A DNA stretch of 64,000 nucleotides, taken from an uncultured delta proteobacterium. Lineage in GTDB: Bacteria; Desulfobacterota; Binatia; DP-6. How positions within the stretch are numbered: position 1 is the stretch's first letter; each line of letters starts with the position of its first letter. Positions 5,012-64,000 of the stretch are shown one piece after another. Under the pieces are notes generated by a model. It worked only from the letters and a program-made list of their open reading frames with translations, ran no database searches and was not told the DNA's origin. Position numbers and translations under genes: made by a program. The stretch is from NCBI GenBank assembly GCA_963815115.1, contig CAWFFN010000008.1, positions 544,001 to 608,000 of the forward strand, read 5' to 3'.

Positions 5012-6024
5012 CGCAGGCCTCCGATCGCATCCGCGATCTCGGCCGGCACGCGGTCGCGCACCGCCTTGGCCGCGACCTTGACCGCGTTCGCCACCGCCCG
5101 GGCGCTGGAGCGACCATGGCATTTGATGAAGAGCCGATCGAAGCCGAGGATCGGCGAGCCACCGTAGCGGCTGAAATCGGTGAGCGCGTGCACGCGCTCG
5201 ATGCCCTGAGAGAGCAGGCGCAAGCCCACGCGCCAGACGAGGCGGCGCTCGGCCGCCGCCTGCGCGATGTCGATCAGCACCTCGGAGACGCCCTCGAGCA
5301 GCTTGAGCGCGACGTTGCCGACGAAGCCCTCGCAGACGATGACGTCGGCCCGGCCGCGTACCAGGTCGTTGCCCTCGACGTTGCCGACGAAGTCGATCAT
5401 CGGCAGCGCGCGCAGGCGGCGGTTCGCCTCCACCAGCGCGGCTCCGCCCTTGGTGTCCTCGGTTCCCATGTTGAGCAGCCCGACGCGCGGATTCGGGACC
5501 TTCGAGATGCGCCGGGCATAGGCGCTGCCCATGAGCGCGAAGTGGACCAGCTCGTTGGCTTCGCAATGCACCGTCGCCCCGACGTCGAGCAGCAGCGCCA
5601 GCGGGTCCTGGCCCGGGTACTCCGTGTGCCGCGGGTACACGCAGGCGAGCGCCCCGCGCCGGATGCCCGGCAGGAGCTGGAAAACGCGCGCGGCGCCGAG
5701 GATGCACGCGCCCGTGTTGCCCGCCGACACGATGGCCTCGGCCCGCCCGTCGGCCACCGCGCGCAGCGCGACCAGGAGCGAGGCGTCCTTGCGCACGCGA
5801 ACGGCCTCGTGTGCGTCCTCGTCCATCCCGATCGCGTCACGGGCGTGCAGGATGGCGATGCGCTCGGGGTTGTAGGGCGCCGCCTCGAGGATGGCCTGGA
5901 GGCGGGCCTCGTCACCGACCAGCAGGCAGTCGATGTCGGTGCCGAGCGAGACCTCGGCGACGCCGCGCACGATCTCCTCGGGCGCATGATCGCCTCCCAT
6001 GGCGTCGACCGCGATGACCGGCAT
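5008..6024 (-). CDS. plsX: phosphate acyltransferase PlsX
   Basis: IAVDAMGGDHAP, SAGNTGA, LDVGA, CEGFVGN and KCHGRS motifs. Confidence 0.92.
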   Translation of the reverse strand: MPVIAVDAMGGDHAPEEIVRGVAEVSLGTDIDCLLVGDEARLQAILEAAPYNPERIAILHARDAIGMDEDAHEAVRVRKDASLLVALRAVADGRAEAIVSAGNTGACILGAARVFQLLPGIRRGALACVYPRHTEYPGQDPLALLLDVGATVHCEANELVHFALMGSAYARRISKVPNPRVGLLNMGTEDTKGGAALVEANRRLRALPMIDFVGNVEGNDLVRGRADVIVCEGFVGNVALKLLEGVSEVLIDIAQAAAERRLVWRVGLRLLSQGIERVHALTDFSRYGGSPILGFDRLFIKCHGRSSARAVANAVKVAAKAVRDRVPAEIADAIGGLR

Positions 6025-52954: not shown

Positions 52955-53928
52955 GACCGCCGCCGCACGGCCCGCACGGCCGTGCCGCTGGCGAGCGCCT
53001 CCTCGAGCGCGACGGAGAGCCGCTCGAGCGCCTCGGTGCCGAACTCCTCGACGAAGAGGAACGGCAGCTCGATCATCGGGGCCGGGGCGGTCCCCGCACG
53101 CAGGCGCTCGAGGTTCGCCTGGTTGATGGCCGCCCACCCGCTCTCCTCCGCCGCGCGCTCGGCGACGCAGCCGAGCAGCCCGCGCGCGCCGGTCGCGTTG
53201 CGCGCGGCGGCCTCGAGGGCGGCGATCACCTCGGGCGCGAAGCGCCGGCGGTGAAGCCGGTTGACCACCACCCAGCCGAGCGGCATCTGCAGCGTCTCGC
53301 GGAGCTGGGTGGTGGTCTCGAGCGTCTCCGCCACCGGCATCTCCTCGGCCAGCGTCACGAGGTGAACGGCAGTGGTCTCGCCGTCCTGCAGCAACCCCAC
53401 GATCTTCGCCGCTTCACGCTGCACCAGGCCCGCGCCGAAGGTGTCGCGCGCCGCCTGCGGCATGCGGAGGTACTGCAGGCTGTGTCCGGTCGCGGGCGCG
53501 TCGACCACGATCGTGTCCCAGGCCGGTCCGGCACTGCCCTGCCGGGTCGCCTCGTACCAGATCTTGCCGACCGTCATCAGCTCCTTCAGGCCCGGCGCCG
53601 CCGCCACGAAGTACTGGTAGATGCGACTCGAGAAGACGGTCTGCAGCAAGCGCTTCACGGGGATGACCAGCCCGAGGTACTCCTCGAGTGCGGCCCGCCC
53701 ATCCACCGAGAGCACGTGCAGGCCGGGAGCGACGGGGCGCGCGACGGGCGCTGCTCCGTCGGAGCCGAGCAGCGCCGGAAGGCCACCCGTCGAGTCCATC
53801 TCCACCGCGAGCGTGCGCCGGCCGCTGCGCGCCAGGAGCAGCGCCAGCGCGGCCGCTACCGTGGTCTTGCCGACGCCGCCCTTGCCGACGACGAAGTGCA
53901 ACCGCCGCTCGAGCAGCGAGCCGGGCAT
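52951..53928 (-). CDS. ArsA/Get3-like ATPase, subunit 1
   Basis: GKGGVGKTT, APGLKE, DAPATGH and EEMPVAET motifs. Confidence 0.9.
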
Positions 53929-55193
53929 CAGTCGACCCGGCGTATGGCCAGGGAGACGTTCGTGCCCCCGAACCCGAAGGAGTTCGAGAGCGCGACCTCG
54001 ACCGTGGCCTTGCGCGCGGTATGCGCCACATAGTCGAGGTCGCACGCCGGATCGGGGTCGTCCAGGTTGATCGTGGGCGGGAGGATGCCACGTGCGACGG
54101 CCAGGACCGTGTAGATGGCCTCGACGGCGCCGGCGGCGCCGAGCGTATGGCCGGTCATCGACTTGGTGGAGCTCACCGCGAGGCGGGGCGCATACTCGCC
54201 GAACAGGCGCTTGATCGCCCGGGTCTCTGCCTCGTCGTTGTGCGGCGTACCCGTGCCGTGCGCGTTGATGTAGCCCACCGCGTCCGGCGTCACGCCGGCG
54301 TCGACCAGGGCCTGCGCCATGCACTCGGCCGCTCCTTCGCCACCGGGCGAGGGCTGCGTCATGTGATAGGCGTCGCAGTTGGCGCCGAAGCCCGCGACTT
54401 CCGCCAGGATGTGCGCGCCGCGCTTCCGGGCATGATCGAGCTCCTCCAGCACCAGCATGCCGGCACCCTCCGCGACCACGAAGCCCTCGCGGCCACGATC
54501 GAAGGGCCGGCTGGCCCGGACGGGATCGTCGTTGTAGCCGGTGGCGAGGGCGCGCATGGCAATGAACCCGCCGACGCCGAGCAGACAGACGGGCGCCTCG
54601 GCGCCGCCGGCGAGGATGATGTCCTGGCGGCCGTCGCGGATGTGCAGCACGGCGTCGCTGATGGCGTGCGCGCCCGACGCGCAGGCGCTCGTCGTCGCAT
54701 AGCTCGGACCGCGCGCGCCGTAGCGCATCGCGATGTGTCCGGAGGCCATGTTGGGGATCAGCTTGGGAATGAAGAAGGGCGACACCCGGCGCACGTCCTG
54801 GGTGGCGAAGTGGTGGTAGGCCGCCTCGAGACTCTCGAGACCGCCCATGCCAACGCCCACGATCACCCCGGCCCGCTCCGGGCGGTCGAACGGCGCCGGC
54901 AGACCGGACTCCTCCATCGCCATCTGGGCGGCGGCGACGGCATACTGGATGAAGACGTCCATCTTCTTCAGGTCCTTGCGCTCGATGAAGCGCTCGGACT
55001 CGAAGTCGGGCACCTCGCCCGCGATGCGAACCGCCAGGTTGGAGGCGTCGAAGCGCCTGATCTCACGCACCCCCGAGCGCCCGGCCACCAGCGCCTCCCA
55101 GTTGCGTTCCGTGCCCGTCCCGAGCGGCGTGACGAGACCGACCCCCGTCACCACCACCCGCCGTCGCGTGCCGTTCGCGTGCAGAATCGCCAT
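53928..55193 (-). CDS. fabF: beta-ketoacyl-ACP synthase II
   Basis: VVVTG, SACASG, NAHGTGT, KSMTGH and SNSFGFGG motifs. Confidence 0.95.
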
Positions 55194-55216
55194 GCTAGGA
55201 GCGCGCCGCGGGGGAG

Positions 55217-55975
55217 TCAAGGAAACGTTCCGAGACGGCCGAGCCCTCGTCGCCAGAGCGCAAGATAGAGCACCACGGTGCTCACCACCAGTGCGGCTGC
55301 GACCAGGTCGCCGATCCCGGGCGCCGGCCGTGGAAAGCGGGTGCGCGGCCGGCCCGAGTTGAAGCCCCGCAGCTCCAGCGACATCGCCATCCAGTCGGCC
55401 CGGCGGAGCGCCCCGATGAACACCGGCACGATCACCGGCCCGAAGTGCTTGAGGCGCGTGAGCGGTCCGCCGCGCCGCAGATCGAGCCCGCGACAGCGCT
55501 GGGCCTGCACGATGGTGACGGCCGACTCGAAGAACACCGGCACCAGCCGAAAGGCGAGCGTGAGCGTGAACCCCACGAGATAGGGCACGCCGAGGCGGCG
55601 CAGCCCGTAGGCCACCTCTTCCACGCGCGTGGTGGTGAGGAAGAGCAGCCCCGTGACCAGGAACGTGCACAGGCGGATCCCCATCGAGATGCCGTACTCC
55701 AGGCCCTGCTCGCGCGTGGCGGCTCCGTAGAAGAACGTCCAGATGATCACCGTGACCACGAACACGATGACCAGCGCCGGTGTGAAGCGCCTGAGGTTCG
55801 GCAGCCCGCCGGCAAGCAGGAGGAACACCGTCACCGGCAGCCCGAGGGCGGCCAGCAGCACGGGGCGGTCGACCACGAAGGCGGCCACGACCAGACCGAA
55901 CAGCGCCAGGAGCTTGGTCACGGGATGGAGGCGATGGACGAACGTCGCCGCCGGCACGTAGAGGGTGAGGGTCAT
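55217..55975 (-). CDS. ecfT: ECF transporter T component
   Basis: [15 protein letters not shown] and LELRG motifs. Confidence 0.88.
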
Positions 55976-57639
55976 CGCGTCCCGTCCTCCTGCAGCCACG
56001 AGACCAGCTCGTCGACGGACAGCGGCGTGCAGCCGAGCGCCTGCCCGAGCAGGGTCACCTCGGGAGCGCGGAACGCGGCCTCGGCGACCCGCGCCGGGTC
56101 GGCGAAGAAGTCGCGCACGCTGCCGTCGAAGCGCAGCCGGCCCTGCGCCAGCAGCAGCACGCGCTCGGCATACTCCGCGATCACCCAGGGCGTGTGCGTG
56201 ATCACCAGCACCGTGCGGCCGGCCTGCCGGAGCGTGCGCAGCAGCTCGAGCATGCGGCGCTGCTCCTGCCAGTCGAGGCCGGTCGTCGGCTCGTCGAGCA
56301 CGAGGACCTCGGGTCGCAGCGCGAGCACGGACGCCACCGCCAGGCGCTGGCGCGCACCCTTGTCGAGCAGGAACGGATCCGCATCGCGTCCCGCGAGGCC
56401 GACGGCCGCGAGCGCTTCCTCCACCCGGAGCGCCACCTCGACGGCGGGAAGTCCCAGGTTCCGCGGGCCGAAGGCCACCTCGTCCTCGACGGTGGCTGCG
56501 AAGAGCTGGTGGTCGGGATCCTGGAACACGAATCCCACGCGCTGGGCGATCTCCTCCAGCGGACAGGCGGCGACGTCGCGTCCCTCGAGCCGCACCGCGC
56601 CGGTGGTGGCACGCAGGAGCCCGTTCAGGTGCTTGGCGAGCGTCGTCTTGCCGGAGCCGTTGCGGCCGATGAGCGCGACCAGCTCGCCGCGGCCGATCGT
56701 GAAGCTCACGTCGGTCAATGCCTCGCGCCCGTCGGCGAAGCGGTACCCGAGGCGCTCGACGACGAGCACGGAGGCGCCGCGCCGCGGCGCCGGAGGGAGG
56801 GTCGGAGCGCGGGCGATCCGCCCTGCCGCCCGCAGCCGCTCCGCCGCCTCGGCGACGTCGAGCGGCGGCGCCGACTCGTGGACGGCGTCGAAGACGCGGC
56901 ACACGTCGTGCGGCCGCACGCCCGCCGCGGCGCAGGACTGGACGTCGGCCAGCACCGACGCCGGCGGGCCGCTGGCCACCACGCGGCCGGCGGCGAGCAG
57001 CACGAGGTGGTCGGCAGCCGCCGCGGCGCCGACGTCGTGCTCGATCAAGAGCACCGCGACCCCCTCGCGGCGGAGACCGGCCAGCACCGCGAACACCTCG
57101 GCGCGCCCCACCGGGTCGAGGTCGGTGGTCGGCTCGTCGAGCACCAGGATGGGCGGGCGCAGCGCCAGGAGGCCGGCGATCGCGAGCCGCTGCTTCTCGC
57201 CTCCCGACAGCGTCCCGGGATCACGCCCCTCGAAGCCGGTGAGCCCGACGGCGGCGAGCGCGTCACGCACCCGGGGCGCCATCTCGCGCGGCGGGACGCC
57301 CGTCTGCTCGAGGGCGAAGACGACTTCCTGCGTGACGTCGGTGGAGAAGAGCTGCGCCTCGAAGTCCTGGAACACCATCCCGATCAGCCCGGCCAGCTCC
57401 GCGACGCGGCGGCCCGCGATCGACTCACCCTCGAGGCGGACGTCTCCGTGCACCTCGCCGGCCAGGAAGCACGGGACGATGTTGGTGAGGCAGCGCGCCA
57501 GCGTGGTCTTCCCCGCCCCGGTGGCGCCCATGACGACGGTGAGGGTCCCGGCAGGCACCGAGCAGTCGACGCCGGAGAGCGCCGGCCGCCCGGCGTCGGC
57601 GTAGGTGCAGCCGAGACCCTGGACCGCGATCCCGGACAT
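55972..57639 (-). CDS. ECF transporter fused double ATPase
   Basis: Two Walker A motifs ([16 protein letters not shown]), LSGGEKQR and two DEPT motifs. Confidence 0.9.
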
Positions 57640-58421
57640 CACAGCAGGACGAGACCGAGGACGGCGAGCCCGAGGAAGGGGAGCACGCCGAGCCCGAGCT
57701 CCCGCTGCCCCGTCGCCGTCGCCAGCCCGGCCCAGGCCGGCACCCAGCGGTGCGCGGCGATGAGCTGGCCGGCGGTGAACCCGCCCACCGTTCCGGCCAC
57801 GAGGAGCGCGAGCGCGACGGCACGGCGGCCCACGGACCGGCGCGGCCGGGGCCCGAGCAGGTTCCGGTAGAGGAGATGCGCGCTGTCGATGCGCGGGTAG
57901 AGCAGCCGGAGCAGCAGGGGTGCGAGTCCGATCCCGGCGATGAGGTTGTTCGCCAGCACCGACGAGCCGATGACGGTGAAGGGGTGGAAGCCGAGCACGC
58001 CGAGGCCGAACCCGACGACCGTCGCGCACAGCATGCCGGCGAGCCCGACCACTGCAACGAAGAGCATCCACCAGCCGAGGCGCGGCGCCGGCACCGGCCG
58101 GCTGCCGGTCACCGACTCCCAGACGGCGTAGGGCACGAGCCCGAAGGCGAGGTTGCCGACGAAGCCGAAGAGGTCGCCGGGACCGAGGCCACCGAAGAAA
58201 TCGCCGATCAGGTTGCCGAAGGCCGCGCCCCAGGCTCCGGCCGGTCCGAACAGGAACGAGCACACGATGGGCAGCGCGTTGGCCGGCCGCAGCTCGGTCA
58301 CGCCGGGGATGATCGGCGCCACCTTGAACGGGATCAGGATGCCGCCGTAGAGCGCGGCGCAGATGGCCGTCAGCACGACCATGCGCGTGTTGCGCCACAT
58401 ACCGAAGAGCTCGCCCGCCAC
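57639..58421 (-). CDS. ECF S component (QueT-like family)
   Basis: Hydrophobic; ELRPANALP and GAAFGNLIGD motifs; upstream of A/T genes. Confidence 0.75.
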   Translation of the reverse strand: MAGELFGMWRNTRMVVLTAICAALYGGILIPFKVAPIIPGVTELRPANALPIVCSFLFGPAGAWGAAFGNLIGDFFGGLGPGDLFGFVGNLAFGLVPYAVWESVTGSRPVPAPRLGWWMLFVAVVGLAGMLCATVVGFGLGVLGFHPFTVIGSSVLANNLIAGIGLAPLLLRLLYPRIDSAHLLYRNLLGPRPRRSVGRRAVALALLVAGTVGGFTAGQLIAAHRWVPAWAGLATATGQRELGLGVLPFLGLAVLGLVLL

Positions 58422-58503
58422 CCCGCGCCGCACTTGCCAGGCCGGAGCGGGCGCTTCAACCCCGCCGCGTTGACTGGCGCCCGACCTTCCTCTAACGGGA
58501 GGC

Positions 58504-59373
58504 ATGCGTCGCGCATGCCTCGCGCTCTGCGTGGCCGCGATCTGCGCGGCCTGCTCCGGGAAGAAGCCCCTCGTGCCCGCCGATCAGCTGTGGGCACAGG
58601 GCAACGAGGCCATGCAGGACGAGGCGTACGACGTCGCCGTCCAGAACTACAAGCGGCTCCTCGACAGCTATCCCTTCGATCCCAACACCGAGGAAGCGGA
58701 GCTCAAGATCGCGGAGGCGTACTTCAACGCCCAGCGCTACCCGGAGGCCATCGCCTCGTTCGGCGACTTCGAGCGCATGCACCCGACGAGCGACAACCTG
58801 CCCCAGATCGAGTACCGCCGCGGCATGGCGTACCTCGCCCAGCACCGCTCGAGCGATCGCGACCAGCAGGCGATCAAGAACGCGCTCGAGTCGTTCCGCA
58901 ACATCGTCGAGCGCTACCCCGGCACACCGTGGGCGGCGCGCGCCGGGCTGCGGGTCCGCGAGTGTCGCGAGGATCTGGCCGAGCACGACGCCGACATCGC
59001 GGCGTTCTACCTGCACCGCGGCAGCCTGCGCGCCGCCGAGTCTCGCCTGCGCGGGATGCTGACGGACTACCCGGATACCGAGGCCACGGCCCGCGCCCTC
59101 GACACGTTCGCCAAGCTGTACGCCTCGCGCGACGAGCCGGAGGAGGCCAACCTCGCCCTCGCCACGCTCGCGCGCTATCACCCCGAGAGCCCGCTCGGCG
59201 TCGACGCCCGCCAGCAGCTCGGCGCGCTCGACCCGGCGCAGGGCCAGGACCCCCTGCCCGTGCTCGTCGCGCGGATCGACGAGATGCGTACGCAGGCGGA
59301 CCGCGAGAGGGTCCCGAAGACCGTGTCGGCGTACTCCGATCGCCCTGGCATGCCGGGCGGCGCCCGCTACTGA
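58504..59373 (+). CDS. bamD: outer-membrane assembly lipoprotein BamD
   Basis: Lipobox AAC; YPF, HP.S and RDQ motifs; TPR pattern. Confidence 0.88.
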   Translation: MRRACLALCVAAICAACSGKKPLVPADQLWAQGNEAMQDEAYDVAVQNYKRLLDSYPFDPNTEEAELKIAEAYFNAQRYPEAIASFGDFERMHPTSDNLPQIEYRRGMAYLAQHRSSDRDQQAIKNALESFRNIVERYPGTPWAARAGLRVRECREDLAEHDADIAAFYLHRGSLRAAESRLRGMLTDYPDTEATARALDTFAKLYASRDEPEEANLALATLARYHPESPLGVDARQQLGALDPAQGQDPLPVLVARIDEMRTQADRERVPKTVSAYSDRPGMPGGARY

Positions 59374-59407
59374 GCGGGCCAGCGCCGCGTGGCCGGCGTG
59401 TCGCGGT

Positions 59408-59437
59408 TTGACACGCCTTCGCGATCCGAGATACCAC
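59408..59437 (+). promoter_or_regulatory. putative sigma70 promoter upstream of SAM riboswitch
   Basis: TTGACA at 59408 with weak -10 (TACCAC, 18-nt spacer). Confidence 0.45.
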
Positions 59438-59462
59438 CCTGCGTAGAGAAGAGACGACAAAC

Positions 59463-59580
59463 CCCATCCAGAGTGGCGGAGGGTCCGGCCCAGCGAAGCC
59501 ACAGCAACCGGCCCGTGCGGGGCGCGGTGCTAATTCCGACGCGAGGTTTGGCTGGTGAGAGCCGCCCGCGAAAGATGAGG
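59463..59580 (+). ncRNA. SAM-I riboswitch
   Basis: ATCCAGAG-TGGCGGAGGG...GGCCC..GAAGCC.CAGCAACC...GGTGCTAATTCC...GAAAGATGAG S-box consensus; downstream hairpin at ~59601-59623. Confidence 0.92.
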
Positions 59581-59637
59581 ATCGCACGCTGGTGAGAGCC
59601 CTCCCCCTACCGTCGGTGGGGGAAGAGATCACCGAGC

Positions 59638-60384
59638 ATGCGCCCCAGCCGATCGACACGCCCTGACCTCGAGGATGCTCGCGTTCTGGTCGTCGGCGTC
59701 GGAGGACTGGGATCGCCGGCCGCGATGGCGCTCGCCGAGGCGGGCGTGGGTACCGTCGGCCTGGTCGACCCGGATCGGGTGGAGCCGTCGAATCTCCACC
59801 GCCAGCCGCTCTACACCGATGCCGACGTCGGGCTGCCCAAGGTGGACGCGGCCGCCGCCCGGCTCCGCGCCGGTCATCCGCGCCTCCGGGTCGAGACCGC
59901 GGCCGTGCGCTTCGGTGCCGGCTCGAGCTCCCTGCTCGCTGGCTTCGACGTCGTCCTCGACGGCACCGATTCCATCGGCGCCAAGTTCGACGTCAACGAC
60001 GCGGCGATTGCCGCGCGCGTTCCGCTCGTCCACGCCGGCGCCATCGGCTGGCAGGCGCAGCTGCTCACCGTCCTGCCGGGCCGCAGCGCCTGCTATCGCT
60101 GTCTCTTCGAGGAGCCCCCGCCAGCGGACGAGGTGCCGTCGTGTCAGGAGGCCGGCGTCCTCGGTCCCGCCGTGGTGTTCGCCGGCAGCGTGCAGGCCGC
60201 GGAGGCGATCCGCCTGCTCACGGGGGCGGCGCCGGCGTTCGCGGACCGGCTGCTCGCCATCGATACCCGCACCGGAAGCTGGCGGCGCATCGCGGTGACC
60301 CGCCGTCTCGACTGCCCCGCCTGTGGGACCGTGCATCAGGAGACCATCGCGCCCAGGAGCGCGCAAAGGAGTGTAGCGAGATGA
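59638..60384 (+). CDS. ThiF/MoeB-family E1-like adenylyltransferase lacking the N-terminal RYSRQ helix
   Basis: GVGGLG, SNLHRQ, CYRC, SCQEAG and CPAC motifs; in-frame stop at 59593 rules out a long N-terminal extension. Confidence 0.9.
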   Translation: MRPSRSTRPDLEDARVLVVGVGGLGSPAAMALAEAGVGTVGLVDPDRVEPSNLHRQPLYTDADVGLPKVDAAAARLRAGHPRLRVETAAVRFGAGSSSLLAGFDVVLDGTDSIGAKFDVNDAAIAARVPLVHAGAIGWQAQLLTVLPGRSACYRCLFEEPPPADEVPSCQEAGVLGPAVVFAGSVQAAEAIRLLTGAAPAFADRLLAIDTRTGSWRRIAVTRRLDCPACGTVHQETIAPRSAQRSVAR

Positions 60385-61634
60385 GCCACGCAAAAGGGCT
60401 CAGATGCCGCGAGTGCGGCGCCGAAACCCCCATCGCCCCCCTGCACGTCTGCGAGACCTGCTTCGGCCCGCTCGAGGTGCAGTACGACTACGACGCGATC
60501 CGGCGCGTGCTCACGCGCGAAGCCATCGAGCGCCGGCCGCGCAACCTGTGGCGCTATCGCGAGCTGCTCCCGATCGAGGGCGAGCCGCAGATCGGGCTGC
60601 ACTCGGGCTTCACCCCGCTCGTCCGGGCCGAGCGCCTCGCCGCCGTGCTGGGCGTGAAGGAGCTCTGGGTCAAGGACGACTCGGTCAACCACCCCACCTT
60701 CTCGTACAAGGACCGGGTGGTCTCGGTCGCCATCTCGAAGGCCATCGAGTTCGGCTTCGACACGGTGTCCTGCGCCTCCACCGGCAATCTCGCCAACTCC
60801 GTCTCCGCGCACGCCGCGCGTGCGGGACTCAACTGCTTCATCTTCATCCCGGACGACCTCGAGCAGGGCAAGGTGATCGGCTCGACCATCTACGGCCCCC
60901 GCGCCATCGCGATCCGGGGCAACTACGACGACGTCAATCGGCTGTGCAGCGAGATCGCCGACAAGTACGGCTGGGCCTTCGTCAACATCAACGTGCGCCC
61001 GTACTACACGGAGGGCGCGAAGACCTACGGCTTCGAGGTCGCCGAGCAGCTCGGCTGGCGCCTGCCGCAGCACATCGTCGTGCCGGTCGCCGGGGGAACG
61101 ATCCTGCCCAAGGTGGCGAAGGCGTTCCGCGAGCTCCGCGACCTGGGCCTGGTCGACGGCGATTTCAAGATCTACGGCGCGCAGGCGGCGGGGTGCGCTC
61201 CGGTCGTCCAGGCGCTCCACAAGCACACCGACCTGATCAGTCCCGTCAAGCCGGCGACCATCGCCAAGTCGATCGCCATCGGCAACCCGGCCGACGGCTA
61301 CTACGTGCTGAAGGCGGTGCGCGAATCGGGAGGCTGGGGCGAGTCGGTCACCGACGCGGAGATCGTCGAGGCCATCCAGCTCCTGGCGCGGACCGAGGGC
61401 ATCTTCACGGAGCCGGCGGGCGGCACCACCGTGGCCGTCACCCGCAAGCTCATCGCGCAGGGCCGCATCCCGCGCGACGAGTCGATCGTGATCTGCGTGA
61501 CCGGCAACGGCTACAAGACGCTCGAGGCCGTGATCGACAGCGTCGAGCAGCCCTCGCGCATCCCGGCGCGGCTCGCCGATTTCGACGCCCTCTACGCCCA
61601 GCTCCGCGGCGGGCTCGAGGCGTCCGCGGGCTAG
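60381..61634 (+). CDS. threonine synthase-like PLP enzyme (possible O-phosphohomoserine sulfhydrylase)
   Basis: CREC...CETC, TFSYKDR (PLP Lys), CASTGNLA and EPAGG motifs. Confidence 0.88.
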   Translation: MSHAKGLRCRECGAETPIAPLHVCETCFGPLEVQYDYDAIRRVLTREAIERRPRNLWRYRELLPIEGEPQIGLHSGFTPLVRAERLAAVLGVKELWVKDDSVNHPTFSYKDRVVSVAISKAIEFGFDTVSCASTGNLANSVSAHAARAGLNCFIFIPDDLEQGKVIGSTIYGPRAIAIRGNYDDVNRLCSEIADKYGWAFVNINVRPYYTEGAKTYGFEVAEQLGWRLPQHIVVPVAGGTILPKVAKAFRELRDLGLVDGDFKIYGAQAAGCAPVVQALHKHTDLISPVKPATIAKSIAIGNPADGYYVLKAVRESGGWGESVTDAEIVEAIQLLARTEGIFTEPAGGTTVAVTRKLIAQGRIPRDESIVICVTGNGYKTLEAVIDSVEQPSRIPARLADFDALYAQLRGGLEASAG

Positions 61635-61687
61635 CGCCGACGCCCCCCGCGCCGGTACAACCAGCAGTCGACAGGAGGAACGAACGC

Positions 61688-61963
61688 ATGACCCAGGTGA
61701 GAGTGCCCACGCCCCTGCGCAAGTTCACGGGCGGCTCCGAGGCCGTCGAGGCAGACGGCACGAACGTGACCTCGGTCCTTGCCGATCTCGATCGGCGCTA
61801 TCCCGGCATCCGGGAACGCATCTGCGACGAATCCGGCCAGGTGCGCCGCTTCGTCAACATCTTCGTCAACGGTGAGGACATCCGCTTCCTCCAGCACCTC
61901 GAGACCCCGGTGAAGGCAGGCGACGAGCTGTCGATCGTCCCGGCCATCGCGGGAGGCCGCTAG
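61688..61963 (+). CDS. MoaD/ThiS/CysO-like sulfur carrier ending GG-R
   Basis: VPTPLR, FVNIFVNGEDIR and PAIAGGR motifs; AGGAGG RBS. Confidence 0.93.
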   Translation: MTQVRVPTPLRKFTGGSEAVEADGTNVTSVLADLDRRYPGIRERICDESGQVRRFVNIFVNGEDIRFLQHLETPVKAGDELSIVPAIAGGR

Positions 61964-61975
61964 AGCGGAGCGTGC

Positions 61976-62959
61976 ATGGCGTCGCGCGTCGCCCAGGCGG
62001 GTTGCTCCGCCGGTCCGACGGCGCCGGGGGAGGGACCGCTCGTCTCGCCCTCGGTGCTCGAGCTGATCGGCAACACGCCGCTGGTGGAGATCCAGCGGGT
62101 GCGCGAAGGAGTCCCGCCCGGCGTCCGCCTGTTCGGCAAGATCGAGGGCTTCAACCCTGGCGGCTCGGTGAAGGACCGGCCCGCGCTCAGGATGATCCAG
62201 GAAGGCATCCGCCAGGGCAGGCTCGTGCCGGGCAAGACCATCCTCGACTCGACGTCGGGCAACACCGGCATCGCGCTCGCCATGATCGGCGCCGCGCTCG
62301 GCTACCCGGTCGAGCTGGTGATGCCGGCCAACGTGAGCCGCGAGCGCAAGCAGATGGTGGCGGCGTTCGGCGCCCGGGTCGTGTTCAGCGATCCGCTCGA
62401 GGGCAGCGACGGCGCCATCCGCCTCTGCCGCGAGGTGCTCGCGGCCGATCCCGAGCGCTACTTCAAGCCCGACCAGTACAACAACGAAGCCAACCCGCTC
62501 GCCCACTACGAGACCACGGGACCGGAGATCTGGCGCCAGACCGACGGCCGGGTGACGCACTTCGTGGCCGGCATCGGCACGGGCGGCACGATCATGGGCA
62601 CGGGTCGCTTCCTGAAGGAGCAGAATCCGGCCGTCCAGGTGATCGCGGCGGAGCCGGAGGACGCGTTTCACGGCCTCGAGGGGCTCAAGCACATGGAGAC
62701 CTCGATCGTGCCGGGCATCTACCACGAAGCCGAGCTCGACCTGAAGCTCGGCGTCGGCACCGACGAGGCATACGACATGGTGTACCGCCTCGGGCGCGAG
62801 GAGGCGCTGCTCGTCGGCCAGTCGTGCGGCGCCGCCCACGTCGCCGCGTTGCGGGTGGCGCGCACGCTCGACGAGGGCACGATCGTCGTGCTCTTCGCCG
62901 ACTTCGGGGACCGCTACCTCTCGACCAACCTCTGGCTCGGCTGGCAGCGCCAGGGATGA
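61976..62959 (+). CDS. cysteine synthase family PLP enzyme (CysM-like)
   Basis: IGNTPL, NPGGSVKDR, TSGNTG and GTGGT motifs. Confidence 0.92.
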   Translation: MASRVAQAGCSAGPTAPGEGPLVSPSVLELIGNTPLVEIQRVREGVPPGVRLFGKIEGFNPGGSVKDRPALRMIQEGIRQGRLVPGKTILDSTSGNTGIALAMIGAALGYPVELVMPANVSRERKQMVAAFGARVVFSDPLEGSDGAIRLCREVLAADPERYFKPDQYNNEANPLAHYETTGPEIWRQTDGRVTHFVAGIGTGGTIMGTGRFLKEQNPAVQVIAAEPEDAFHGLEGLKHMETSIVPGIYHEAELDLKLGVGTDEAYDMVYRLGREEALLVGQSCGAAHVAALRVARTLDEGTIVVLFADFGDRYLSTNLWLGWQRQG

Positions 62960-63240
62960 GCCGCGGCGGCAGCACATCGTCGCGCCGCAAGGCGGGCACC
63001 AAGGCGCGGGTGAAGCTCTACCTCACCTACCCGAGCCGTCTGGTGCGCGAGCCCCTCATCTACCACCTGAGCCGCAACTTCGACCTGATCTTCAACATCC
63101 GGCAGGCGAGCGTGAACGAGGACATCGGCATCATCGCCATCGAGCTCGACGGCGCCGACGAGGCGATCGAGCGCGGCATCGCATGGCTCCGCGAGCGCGG
63201 CGTCACCGTCGAGCCGATCGAGAAGAACGTCATCGAGTGA
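62956..63240 (+). CDS. stand-alone NIL-domain protein
   Basis: LTYP...EPLIYHL...FNIRQA...ELDG...GVTVEPIE pattern. Confidence 0.85.
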   Translation: MSRGGSTSSRRKAGTKARVKLYLTYPSRLVREPLIYHLSRNFDLIFNIRQASVNEDIGIIAIELDGADEAIERGIAWLRERGVTVEPIEKNVIE

Positions 63241-63800
63241 TGCTGAGCGACGCGGACATCGAGCGCTGGAGCCGCCAGATCATCCTCCCGGAGGTCGGCG
63301 GCCGAGGGCAGCGCAGGCTGATGACGGCACGCGTGTCGGTCGTGGGCGACGGGCCGGTCGCCGCCTGCGCGACCGATCTGCTCGCGCGCGCGGGGGTCAC
63401 CGCCGAGCGCTCCTCCGGGCAGCTCGACGACGCCGAGCTCGTGGTCGATCTCGGCCCGGGGAAGAGCGCCGGCACCGCCCTCGCCCGGCGCGCGCTCGAG
63501 CGCGGCGTGCCGCTGGTTCGCGGCCGATGCTGGAGCGCCGGCGGTACGGTGGACACGCTGGTCGGCCGGCCCTGCGGCCTCTGCCTGTCCGGGGCGGCGC
63601 TCCCGTCCGGCCCGACCGGCGAGGCCCTGGCGGCGCCGGCGGCACAGGCGGTGGCCGCGCTCGTCGCGACCGAGGTCCTGCGCGTGCTCCTGATCGGAGC
63701 GCCTGTCGGCCGGCGACAGCTGGTCGATCTCGACGGCGGCCGCTTCTCGTGCGAGGCGCTCGACTCGGCCGGCTGTGCCAGCTGCGGAGCGCGGGCGTGA
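63240..63800 (+). CDS. degenerate ThiF/MoeB-like protein (keeps N-terminal RWSRQ helix and Zn CxxC pairs, lacks ATP-binding motifs)
   Basis: MLSDADIERWSRQIILPEVGGRGQRRL; GDGPVA instead of GxGGxG; no SNLxRQ; CGLC and CASC. Confidence 0.8.
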   Translation: MLSDADIERWSRQIILPEVGGRGQRRLMTARVSVVGDGPVAACATDLLARAGVTAERSSGQLDDAELVVDLGPGKSAGTALARRALERGVPLVRGRCWSAGGTVDTLVGRPCGLCLSGAALPSGPTGEALAAPAAQAVAALVATEVLRVLLIGAPVGRRQLVDLDGGRFSCEALDSAGCASCGARA

Positions 63801-64000
63801 CCGGCGGCGAGCGGCTCGAGGCGAAGCTCGACATCGCGGCCCGTGGTGTGCGCATCGACGAAAGCGCGCGTGGGCTCGCCCCGGAATCGGAGCCGCTGCC
63901 GCAGGCCCTCGAGCTCGTCATCGACGACGAGGCGCACGTCAGCGCGCCGGTCGACGCGGCCGGCACGGCGCCCGCCGCCCTGCTGCTGATCGGAGACGCG
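63797..64000 (+). CDS. 3'-partial CDS, possibly the N-terminus of a radical-SAM protein
   Basis: GTGA overlap; open to window end (MTGGERLEAKLDIAARGVRID...); family guess is weak. Confidence 0.45.
   Translation, partial: MTGGERLEAKLDIAARGVRIDESARGLAPESEPLPQALELVIDDEAHVSAPVDAAGTAPAALLLIGDA

Follow-up and report, generated by a model that had tools for sequence, protein, structure and literature searches.

Two complementary ThiF/MoeB homologs in a sulfur-carrier operon of class Binatia: a probable bacterial heterodimeric E1-like enzyme

How can a MoaD-like sulfur carrier be activated when its operon encodes two ThiF/MoeB homologs, each of which lacks a different part of the enzyme? The question is raised by a stretch of 64,000 nucleotides from an uncultured member of class Binatia, a group of soil bacteria (the whole stretch is called the window hereafter; contig 8 of genome G000, positions 544001-608000, about 70% G+C). 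From position 59461 to its end the window is occupied by a single compact plus-strand operon that contains the two genes, here called ThiF-1 and ThiF-2. E1 enzymes of ubiquitin-like modifiers are thought to have descended from symmetric MoeB/ThiF homodimers, and to our knowledge the origin of the asymmetric E1 is known from its end states only. Based on the sequences, we consider it probable that an asymmetric E1-like enzyme is divided between ThiF-1 and ThiF-2, which would form a heterodimer in which arginine R12 of ThiF-2 would act in trans.

ThiF-1 (59638..60384, plus strand, 248 residues; Pfam ThiF, E 1.5e-68) is the putative active adenylation subunit. It has GVGGLG at residues 20-25, D44, SNLHRQ at residues 51-56, K68 and DGTD at residues 108-111, together with the CxxC pairs C152/C155 and C226/C229 and with C169 of the segment SCQEAG, which is aligned to Cys184 of E. 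coli ThiF. Among 46 ThiF-1 orthologs, G20, G22, G25, D44, N52, R55, Q56, K68, D108, D111, C152, C155, C169, C226 and C229 are invariant. The part that is missing, from ThiF-1 as well as from all the ThiF-1-type orthologs, is the N-terminal helix with the pattern R-x-x-R-Q. The Pfam ThiF profile matches ThiF-1 with its profile positions 17 to 237 of 238 only, and the alignment to ThiF-1 begins at residue 25 of E. coli ThiF and at residue 28 of MoeB. Note that the absence of the helix is not an annotation artefact, because the space upstream is filled by an in-frame TGA at 59593-59595, after which the ATG at 59638 is the first start, and by an S-adenosylmethionine (SAM) riboswitch at 59461-59581. 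An initial annotation of this DNA had reported GVGGLG, SNLHRQ, both CxxC pairs and the Cys of SCQEAG in ThiF-1, and had claimed that the protein has neither the helix nor room for one; all of this is confirmed here. ThiF-1 ends past the second CxxC pair, without a rhodanese domain.

ThiF-2 (63240..63800, plus strand, 186 residues; Pfam ThiF, 38 bits with the cut-off at 28.1) is the putative inactive subunit. Its N-terminus is MLSDADIERWSRQIILPEVGGRGQRRL and its helix is IERWSRQIILPEVGGRGQ; residues 2-53 are aligned to residues 4-55 of MoeB, with R12 falling on MoeB Arg14, and the Pfam match is confined to residues 11-53. The P-loop is degenerate (GDGPVA), and a deletion of about 55 residues, seen with hhalign against the ThiF-1 profile, removes strand beta-2, the SNLxRQ segment and the Lys; the magnesium-binding Asp is gone as well, and there is no Cys at the catalytic position in the crossover loop. 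Across residues 27-185 the ThiF-2 and ThiF-1 profiles match with a probability of 98.2% in hhalign. The start at 63240 is favoured over the in-frame ATG at 63183 because the frames in L025, L026 and L030 open at the conserved M or 5-6 codons before it. The earlier description of this protein, with a helix, a P-loop reading GDGPVA, no SNLxRQ and no catalytic Cys, thus agrees with the sequence. The CxxC pairs of ThiF-2 are C112/C115 and C179/C182, and in the window's own family the conserved Cys residues of ThiF-2 are the Zn ligands only. The length of the protein falls from about 230-260 residues in f8-type loci to 173-213 in the window's family and to 118-167 in families f12, f15, f17 and f19, where (L157, L158, L159, L160) both CxxC pairs are lost and the N-terminal helix is still present. 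Proteins of this type are currently labelled 'ThiF family adenylyltransferase' or 'hypothetical', and the closest ESM Atlas clusters, mostly from Candidatus Binatota, are unnamed or called 'ThiF family domain-containing protein'. Judged by the residues that they have kept, ThiF-2 proteins cannot adenylate anything, despite the label of adenylyltransferase.

The complementarity of the two proteins is exact, the helix being the sole loss of ThiF-1 and the catalytic residues being the loss of ThiF-2. In the homodimers of MoeB, ThiF and Uba4, an arginine on the N-terminal helix of one subunit completes the ATP site of its partner. A passage of the Uba4 paper (PMC7527816) states that the ATP site uses Arg18 from the second subunit and that dimerisation is essential for adenylation; the 2025 ThiF review (PMC12596934), in one of its passages, describes each complete site of ThiF as being built from the N-terminus of one monomer and the C-terminus of its partner; and in BilD, according to part of its description (PMC10557695), the only active site receives Arg9 from the inactive domain. 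If two different subunits A and B paired, the helix of A would serve the site of B and the helix of B would serve the site of A. If the site of B is dead, the helix of A is therefore jobless and the helix of B is indispensable, which is the state observed here. The live ATP and magnesium site of ThiF-1 together with the helix of ThiF-2 would give a heterodimer having one working active site, with R12 acting in trans. By contrast, the observed state would be unexpected if ThiF-1 and ThiF-2 acted apart, because a homodimer of ThiF-1 would need a helix of its own. The interpretation of the pair as an obligate heterodimer, which the initial annotation had put forward, is partly supported.

The distribution of constraint was determined in both proteins. 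Nine residues, L2, R9, R12, Q13, P17, G20, G23, Q24 and G52, do not vary among 27 diverse ThiF-2 proteins; eight of the nine lie within the first 24 residues, and the mean pairwise identity is 0.77 at residues 1-27 versus 0.29 elsewhere. ThiF-1 has the opposite pattern, with 0.20 for the first 13 residues versus 0.66 elsewhere; in both proteins the constraint lies in the places expected from the heterodimer model. In the ThiF-2 of families f13 and f7, R9 is substituted (LEWFSRQ and IEIWSRQ), with R12 retained. ThiF-2 has 174 relatives of similar length in a 90%-clustered collection and 87 representatives at E ≤ 1e-30 in a 50%-clustered library. The best 150 representatives of the library are all 139-260 residues long; in 140 of them the helix is there and all four catalytic features are missing, SNLxRQ is present in none, and only two, both N-terminal fragments, are without the helix, R12 being found in every complete sequence. 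Decay of ThiF-2 in relatives, which had been named beforehand as speaking against the heterodimer, is not seen: the protein is kept across most of the class, with the helix under strong constraint.

It is also of importance whether the two partial proteins occur together. In the first 20 loci of relatives, ThiF-2 follows the gene for a small NIL-domain protein in all 20 and ThiF-1 heads the operon in 19, the twentieth locus being cut off by the end of its contig. A full-length ThiF-2 is present in 22 of the 24 relatives of the window's family; with the query used, G007 (99% complete) and G023 (83% complete) gave neither ThiF-2 nor ThiF-1 and keep only a rhodanese-MoeB paralog. A pattern scan seeded on ThiF-2 then covered 80 loci from many phyla, in which every ThiF-like frame was aligned to a profile of complete ThiFs and nine motifs were read, 8 fragment rows being excluded; such a scan is by design blind to a lone ThiF-1, and this direction was examined within class Binatia instead. 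The 105 rows from the 80 loci, together with three proteins from the genome of the window, can all be assigned to one of three classes: 43 complete ThiFs (44 with the MoeB of the window's genome), 26 ThiF-1-type rows without the helix and with all the catalytic motifs (27 with that of the window), and 36 ThiF-2-type rows in which the helix is kept and the catalytic motifs are dead (37 with that of the window). A dead ThiF-2 is present in all of the 26 loci with a helix-less ThiF-1, and a dead ThiF accompanies none of the 43 complete ThiFs. As to the ten extra ThiF-2 rows, seven are on contigs that end before the position of ThiF-1, two have a frameshifted ThiF-1, and for one (L080) the ThiF-1 is encoded at a different place in the same genome. 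The co-occurrence of helix-less ThiF-1 and dead ThiF-2, a pairing for which the initial annotation had suggested a survey, is without exception wherever both positions are readable, and in lineages with a single-ThiF operon that ThiF is always complete. The single-ThiF operons of other phyla and of archaea likewise have a complete ThiF.

Within the class, 121 genomes from 19 families, each at least 90% complete, were searched for ThiF-1-like frames, and representative loci were read for each family. The tally includes the unpublished genome G098, on which no claim depends. Since the broad ThiF-2 profile also matches ordinary ThiFs (at about 1e-40), it was not used for counts per genome. ThiF-1-like frames of about 250-300 residues occur in most of the 121 genomes. 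The full split is present in 15 of the 19 families (f1, f2, f4, f5, f7-f13, f15 and f17-f19), while f3, f14 and f16 have, in six of six loci, a single complete operon ThiF with the helix and all the motifs and no ThiF-2. Family f6 lies between these. Its genomes G029 and G116 have two ThiFs that carry the helix and whose ATP motifs are intact, the second of them being without a Cys at the canonical place, and G088 is an intermediate, where ThiF-1 is without the helix and ThiF-2 keeps G-x-G-x-x-G, the ribose-binding Asp, the R-Q and the Lys and has lost the magnesium-binding Asp and the Cys. Moreover, two Nitrospirota loci have two complete ThiFs at the same two operon positions.

In the maximum-likelihood tree the ThiF-1-type rows form one clade nested among the complete ThiFs, and the ThiF-2-type rows form one long-branched clade, each with a support of 99 (Shimodaira-Hasegawa-like approximate likelihood-ratio test, SH-aLRT, for the former). 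Because these are single clades whose inner groupings mirror each other, the two losses appear to go back to a single ancient event, in which they were coupled and whose outcome has persisted. A mirror-tree comparison over 22 loci gives r = 0.91 for ThiF-1 and ThiF-2, with partial correlations of 0.74 and 0.63. Overall we lean, if only slightly, to the view that class Binatia has independently evolved an asymmetric E1 of the eukaryotic style, in a sulfur-carrier pathway of primary metabolism, with living lineages that keep every stage. The series would start with a single complete ThiF and pass to two complete ThiFs. After that, the second copy would lose the Cys and later the magnesium-binding Asp, and the first copy would lose the helix. 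Finally, the dead subunit would shrink to about 118 residues, hardly more than a donor of an arginine finger.

Rearranged loci give a further view of the pair. In G040 (98% complete) ThiF-1 and ThiF-2 are adjacent, 16 bases apart, and are followed by a haloacid dehalogenase (HAD) hydrolase, an adenosine phosphosulfate (APS) kinase and an ATP sulfurylase (L147, 7127-11068); this genome has no ortholog of the MetM-like gene that belongs to the usual operon, its best ThrC match being 36% identical. Judged by coordinates, G056 and G070 have the same adjacency. In G041, ThiF-1 leads the usual operon, which ends at the NIL gene, and an intact ThiF-2 lies 0.93 Mb away, adjoining an APS-kinase-like gene that was recognised by eye (L080, 5998-7518). 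From the arrangements in G040 and G041 it follows that, despite the changed context, the two genes stay together or are both intact, and there are hints that the pair is linked to assimilatory sulfate reduction. A variant radical-SAM gene comes after ThiF-2 in 19 of the 20 loci in the first set and in 18 of 80 in the second, and in G029 it comes after the second of the two complete ThiFs; the loci read from families with a single ThiF showed no such gene. Contig 7 of the window's genome encodes a complete rhodanese-MoeB of 400 residues with an intact IRYSRH helix and all the motifs. Contig 9 has further ThiF-family matches at 520054-520515 (59.8 bits, in a frame of 300 residues) and 526979-527302 (33.4 bits, in a frame of 514 residues), about 7 kb apart.

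Several results weigh against the heterodimer or against the strength of its support. When phylogeny is controlled for, the correlations of ThiF-1 with ThiF-2 are no higher than those of CysM, another protein of the operon, with ThiF-1 (0.75) and ThiF-2 (0.79). Because each trait arose once on the tree, the co-occurrence amounts to one inherited event and not to many independent ones. The Zn pairs of CxxC type, which the initial annotation had noted in ThiF-2, hold for the window's protein but are not universal, being lost in several families. A search for longer, fused forms of ThiF-2 and ThiF-1, in itself a weak search, gave three matches and no natural fusion. Only one of these matches covers much of ThiF-2, P0242 (369 residues), and it was rejected as a fusion, since it reads as an out-of-frame translation of CysM, NIL and ThiF-2 on an error-ridden contig. 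The rhodanese-MoeB encoded elsewhere in the genome is a possible alternative donor of the arginine or of sulfur. ThiF-2 may also have another or an additional partner, the radical-SAM gene being often next to it and an APS kinase being adjacent in some genomes. Finally, ThiF-1 retains in its own site R55 and K68, which correspond to R73 and K86 of MoeB; because a passage of the UBA5 paper (PMC2888440) requires at least one positive residue near the beta and gamma phosphates, ThiF-1 alone might keep some activity.

This last point leads to an alternative that we regard as rather unlikely, namely that ThiF-1 acts as a homodimer or alone, without an arginine in trans, ThiF-2 being an accessory with a different job, for which an adaptor for the sulfur donor, for the variant radical SAM protein, for the NIL protein or for the sulfate-activation enzymes could be considered. 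Besides the positive residues of ThiF-1, the translational coupling of ThiF-2 to the NIL gene upstream and the radical-SAM gene downstream speaks for it, as does the neighbouring APS kinase in G040 and G041. However, it leaves unexplained why the most conserved part of ThiF-2 is the very helix that completes the ATP site of a partner, and why ThiF-1 has lost its helix solely in the lineages that have ThiF-2; moreover, radical SAM is missing near ThiF-2 in many lineages, for example in loci of f8, f9, f4, f2 and f7, and the ThiF-2 of the window's family has no conserved Cys beyond the Zn ligands. The selective retention of the helix is equally unexplained if ThiF-1 partners the rhodanese-MoeB of contig 7 as the source of both the trans arginine and the persulfide sulfur, with ThiF-2 unrelated to catalysis. 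We think this improbable, even though the complete protein is available in the genome, as it also is in the class genomes listed, and ThiF-1 is itself without a rhodanese domain; the presence of rhodanese-MoeB in G007, where ThiF-1 and ThiF-2 are lacking, and in the families with a single complete ThiF implies that it has a role of its own. As for ThiF-2 being a decaying duplicate without function, it is true that ThiF-2 is the fastest-evolving gene of the operon (40-56% identity versus 80-91% for MetM) and that it shrinks in several lineages. Its frame, however, is open in every locus read, it is retained in 15 of the 19 families and at unlinked positions, and identity over its first 27 residues is 77% in the clade as a whole; decay is contradicted by this conservation, and we give it hardly any weight.

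Turning back to the asymmetric heterodimer of ThiF-1 and ThiF-2, it is useful to compare it with known systems. The pair shares with MoeB, ThiF and Uba4 the PF00899 fold and family, ThiF-1 having the same P-loop, SNLxRQ, Lys, magnesium-binding Asp and Zn CxxC pairs, and the same adenylation chemistry on a carrier ending in Gly-Gly (GG) is expected. In those enzymes the N-terminal arginine acting in trans is a defining element of the active site. The pair differs from them in its symmetry: they are homodimers of like subunits, each with a helix, and have two active sites, whereas in Binatia one polypeptide carries the helix and another the active site. In eukaryotic heterodimeric E1s the arginine is given by the inactive subunit, and SAE1-UBA2 (for SUMO) and NAE1/APPBP1-UBA3 (for NEDD8) each combine an inactive adenylation subunit with an active one, so that a dimer has a single active site, as is predicted here from the proteins' residues. 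By contrast, catalytic-Cys domain insertions, a ubiquitin-fold domain (UFD) and an E2 are all missing from the Binatia pair, its substrate would be a sulfur carrier and not a protein modifier, and ThiF-2, with 118-260 residues, is much smaller than SAE1 or NAE1. The asymmetry in Binatia would be independent of the origin of the eukaryotic E1s, because both clades nest among bacterial ThiFs. BilD, of the antiviral ubiquitination system BilABCD, is likewise a bacterial E1 in which one adenylation domain is inactive and the other active, Arg9 coming from the inactive one, as part of its description states (PMC10557695); it differs in being a single chain with a mobile Cys domain, in working with an E2 and in serving phage defence, while here there are two genes in amino-acid biosynthesis.

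A passage of the preprint by Chambers et al. states that all the known bacterial E1-like proteins are homodimers, with the single-chain BilD excepted. In our literature search, outside whose coverage most subscription journals lie, no description of a complementary ThiF/MoeB pair encoded by two genes was found, and the word 'heterodimer' does not occur in the available parts of the 2025 ThiF review (PMC12596934) or of Iyer et al. 2006. The principle of an asymmetric E1 is therefore already known, from eukaryotes and from BilD, while its two-gene form in a sulfur-carrier pathway with living intermediates appears to be new. The clade would represent an independent bacterial origin of E1 asymmetry, with the intermediates alive in sister families and each step open to expression and assay, and it indicates how little of the inactive subunit may be needed. 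If the evolutionary series outlined above is true, the pair would be a natural example of two paralogs that complementary degeneration has bound to each other as an obligate heterodimer, and it would define the minimal inactive E1 subunit. For annotation, it means that ThiF-1 alone may be an insufficient marker of the MoeZ step when the methionine and cysteine pathways of Binatia are reconstructed.

What the enzyme would act on can be read from the rest of the operon. The second gene (60381..61634, plus strand) encodes a ThrC-homologous enzyme of the pyridoxal-phosphate (PLP) type with an N-terminal Cys-rich ribbon (PALP, E 1.4e-70; PRK08197, 315.6 bits; TIGR00260, 296.9 bits). As two additional ThrC-like genes above the family cut-off lie elsewhere in the genome, this one is not the sole threonine synthase. 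A MoaD/ThiS-like sulfur carrier of 91 residues ending in AIAGG-R comes next (61688..61963, plus strand; ThiS, E 2.6e-19; SAMP1, 66.3 bits; moaD_arch, 58.4 bits); in orthologs the carrier ends in GG plus one residue (R in most close relatives, and A, H, N, V or T in others) or exactly in GG. The CysM-like cysteine synthase (61976..62959, plus strand, 327 residues; PALP, E 5.4e-70) scores 377.2 bits against TIGR01138 cysM, slightly below the cut-off of 394.2, and 353.6 bits against TIGR01136 cysKM, above the cut-off of 344.15. Then follow the small NIL-domain protein (62956..63240, plus strand, 94 residues; PF09383, E 1.3e-16), ThiF-2, and the 5' part of a variant radical-SAM gene (63797..64000, plus strand, 401 residues in all; NF045502, 142.1 bits with the cut-off at 125), which extends about 1 kb beyond the end of the window, its remainder being seen in L006 (2058-3260). 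A supply of sulfur is one possibility for the role of this last protein in the pathway.

A thiocarboxylate-dependent route to homocysteine, MetM/MetO of Streptomyces, was reportedly described by Hasebe et al. in 2024, and CysO-CysM-Mec-MoeZ is a pathway of Mycobacterium tuberculosis. The operon has in common with these pathways a ThrC homolog beside a GG carrier, a CysM-type synthase and an E1-like activator; a methionine-linked regulation is supplied here by the SAM riboswitch. It differs from them in the activator, which there is MoeZ, a complete ThiF with a rhodanese, and which here is split and without a rhodanese, and in the lack of a JAMM/Mec gene among the members of the operon; the one Prok-JAB (Mec-like) match that the genome has lies on contig 9, at 265589-265975. 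According to a passage of GapMind 2026, the Streptomyces ThrC homolog MetM converts O-phosphohomoserine to homocysteine using the thiocarboxylated carrier MetO, which is activated by MoeZ and trimmed by Mec, and MetM is often misannotated as threonine synthase. From this passage and from the context, we infer that the ThrC homolog at 60381..61634 is a MetM-like homocysteine synthase that depends on a thiocarboxylate. A thiocarboxylate route to homocysteine and cysteine agrees with the presence of the SAM riboswitch, of the GG carrier and of the CysM-type enzyme. In such a route the residue following GG would presumably be trimmed, the ThiF-1/ThiF-2 enzyme would adenylate the C-terminal Gly of the MoaD-like carrier, and the adenylated carrier would be converted to the thiocarboxylate, which would supply the MetM-like enzyme for the conversion of O-phosphohomoserine to homocysteine and the CysM-like enzyme for that of O-phosphoserine to cysteine. 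As a separate observation on the carrier, in four single-ThiF operons of other phyla (L071, L075, L111 and L117, at about 5700-6000 of each) the carrier frame ending in AIAGG continues via three residues into the ThiF helix EEQIERYSRQ, giving carrier-E1 fusions of about 370 residues that would require cleavage after GG.

The operon leader is a SAM-I riboswitch aptamer (RF00162; 59461..59581, plus strand; 74.3 bits against the gathering threshold of 44.4, E 1.1e-16, full model 1-108), which would govern the entire operon and which was also found 5' of the operon in seven of nine other loci searched. Four junctions have start/stop overlaps: those of ThiF-1 with the ThrC homolog, whose start overlaps the ThiF-1 stop as ATGA, of CysM with NIL, of NIL with ThiF-2, and of ThiF-2 with the radical-SAM gene, which starts at 63797 with a GTG that runs into the stop of ThiF-2 as GTGA. 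A scan of 59300-64000 for promoters and terminators gave no site of either type. Between the aptamer and the ATG of ThiF-1, at 59585-59640, there is a hairpin in which CCCCCUACCGUCGGUGGGGG pairs with the purine-rich GGGGGAAGAG immediately 5' of the start codon, its fold energy being modestly below that of shuffled sequences (z -1.96). Because the hairpin pairs with the purine-rich stretch before the ATG, control of the ThiF-1 leader at translation, rather than at transcription, is suggested. Upstream of the operon lies a BamD gene (58504-59373), and the long minus-strand frames at 53928-58505 look, when read by eye, like those of a FabF-type ketoacyl synthase, the T component of an energy-coupling factor (ECF) transporter, a duplicated ATP-binding cassette (ABC) ATPase and a membrane protein resembling an S component.

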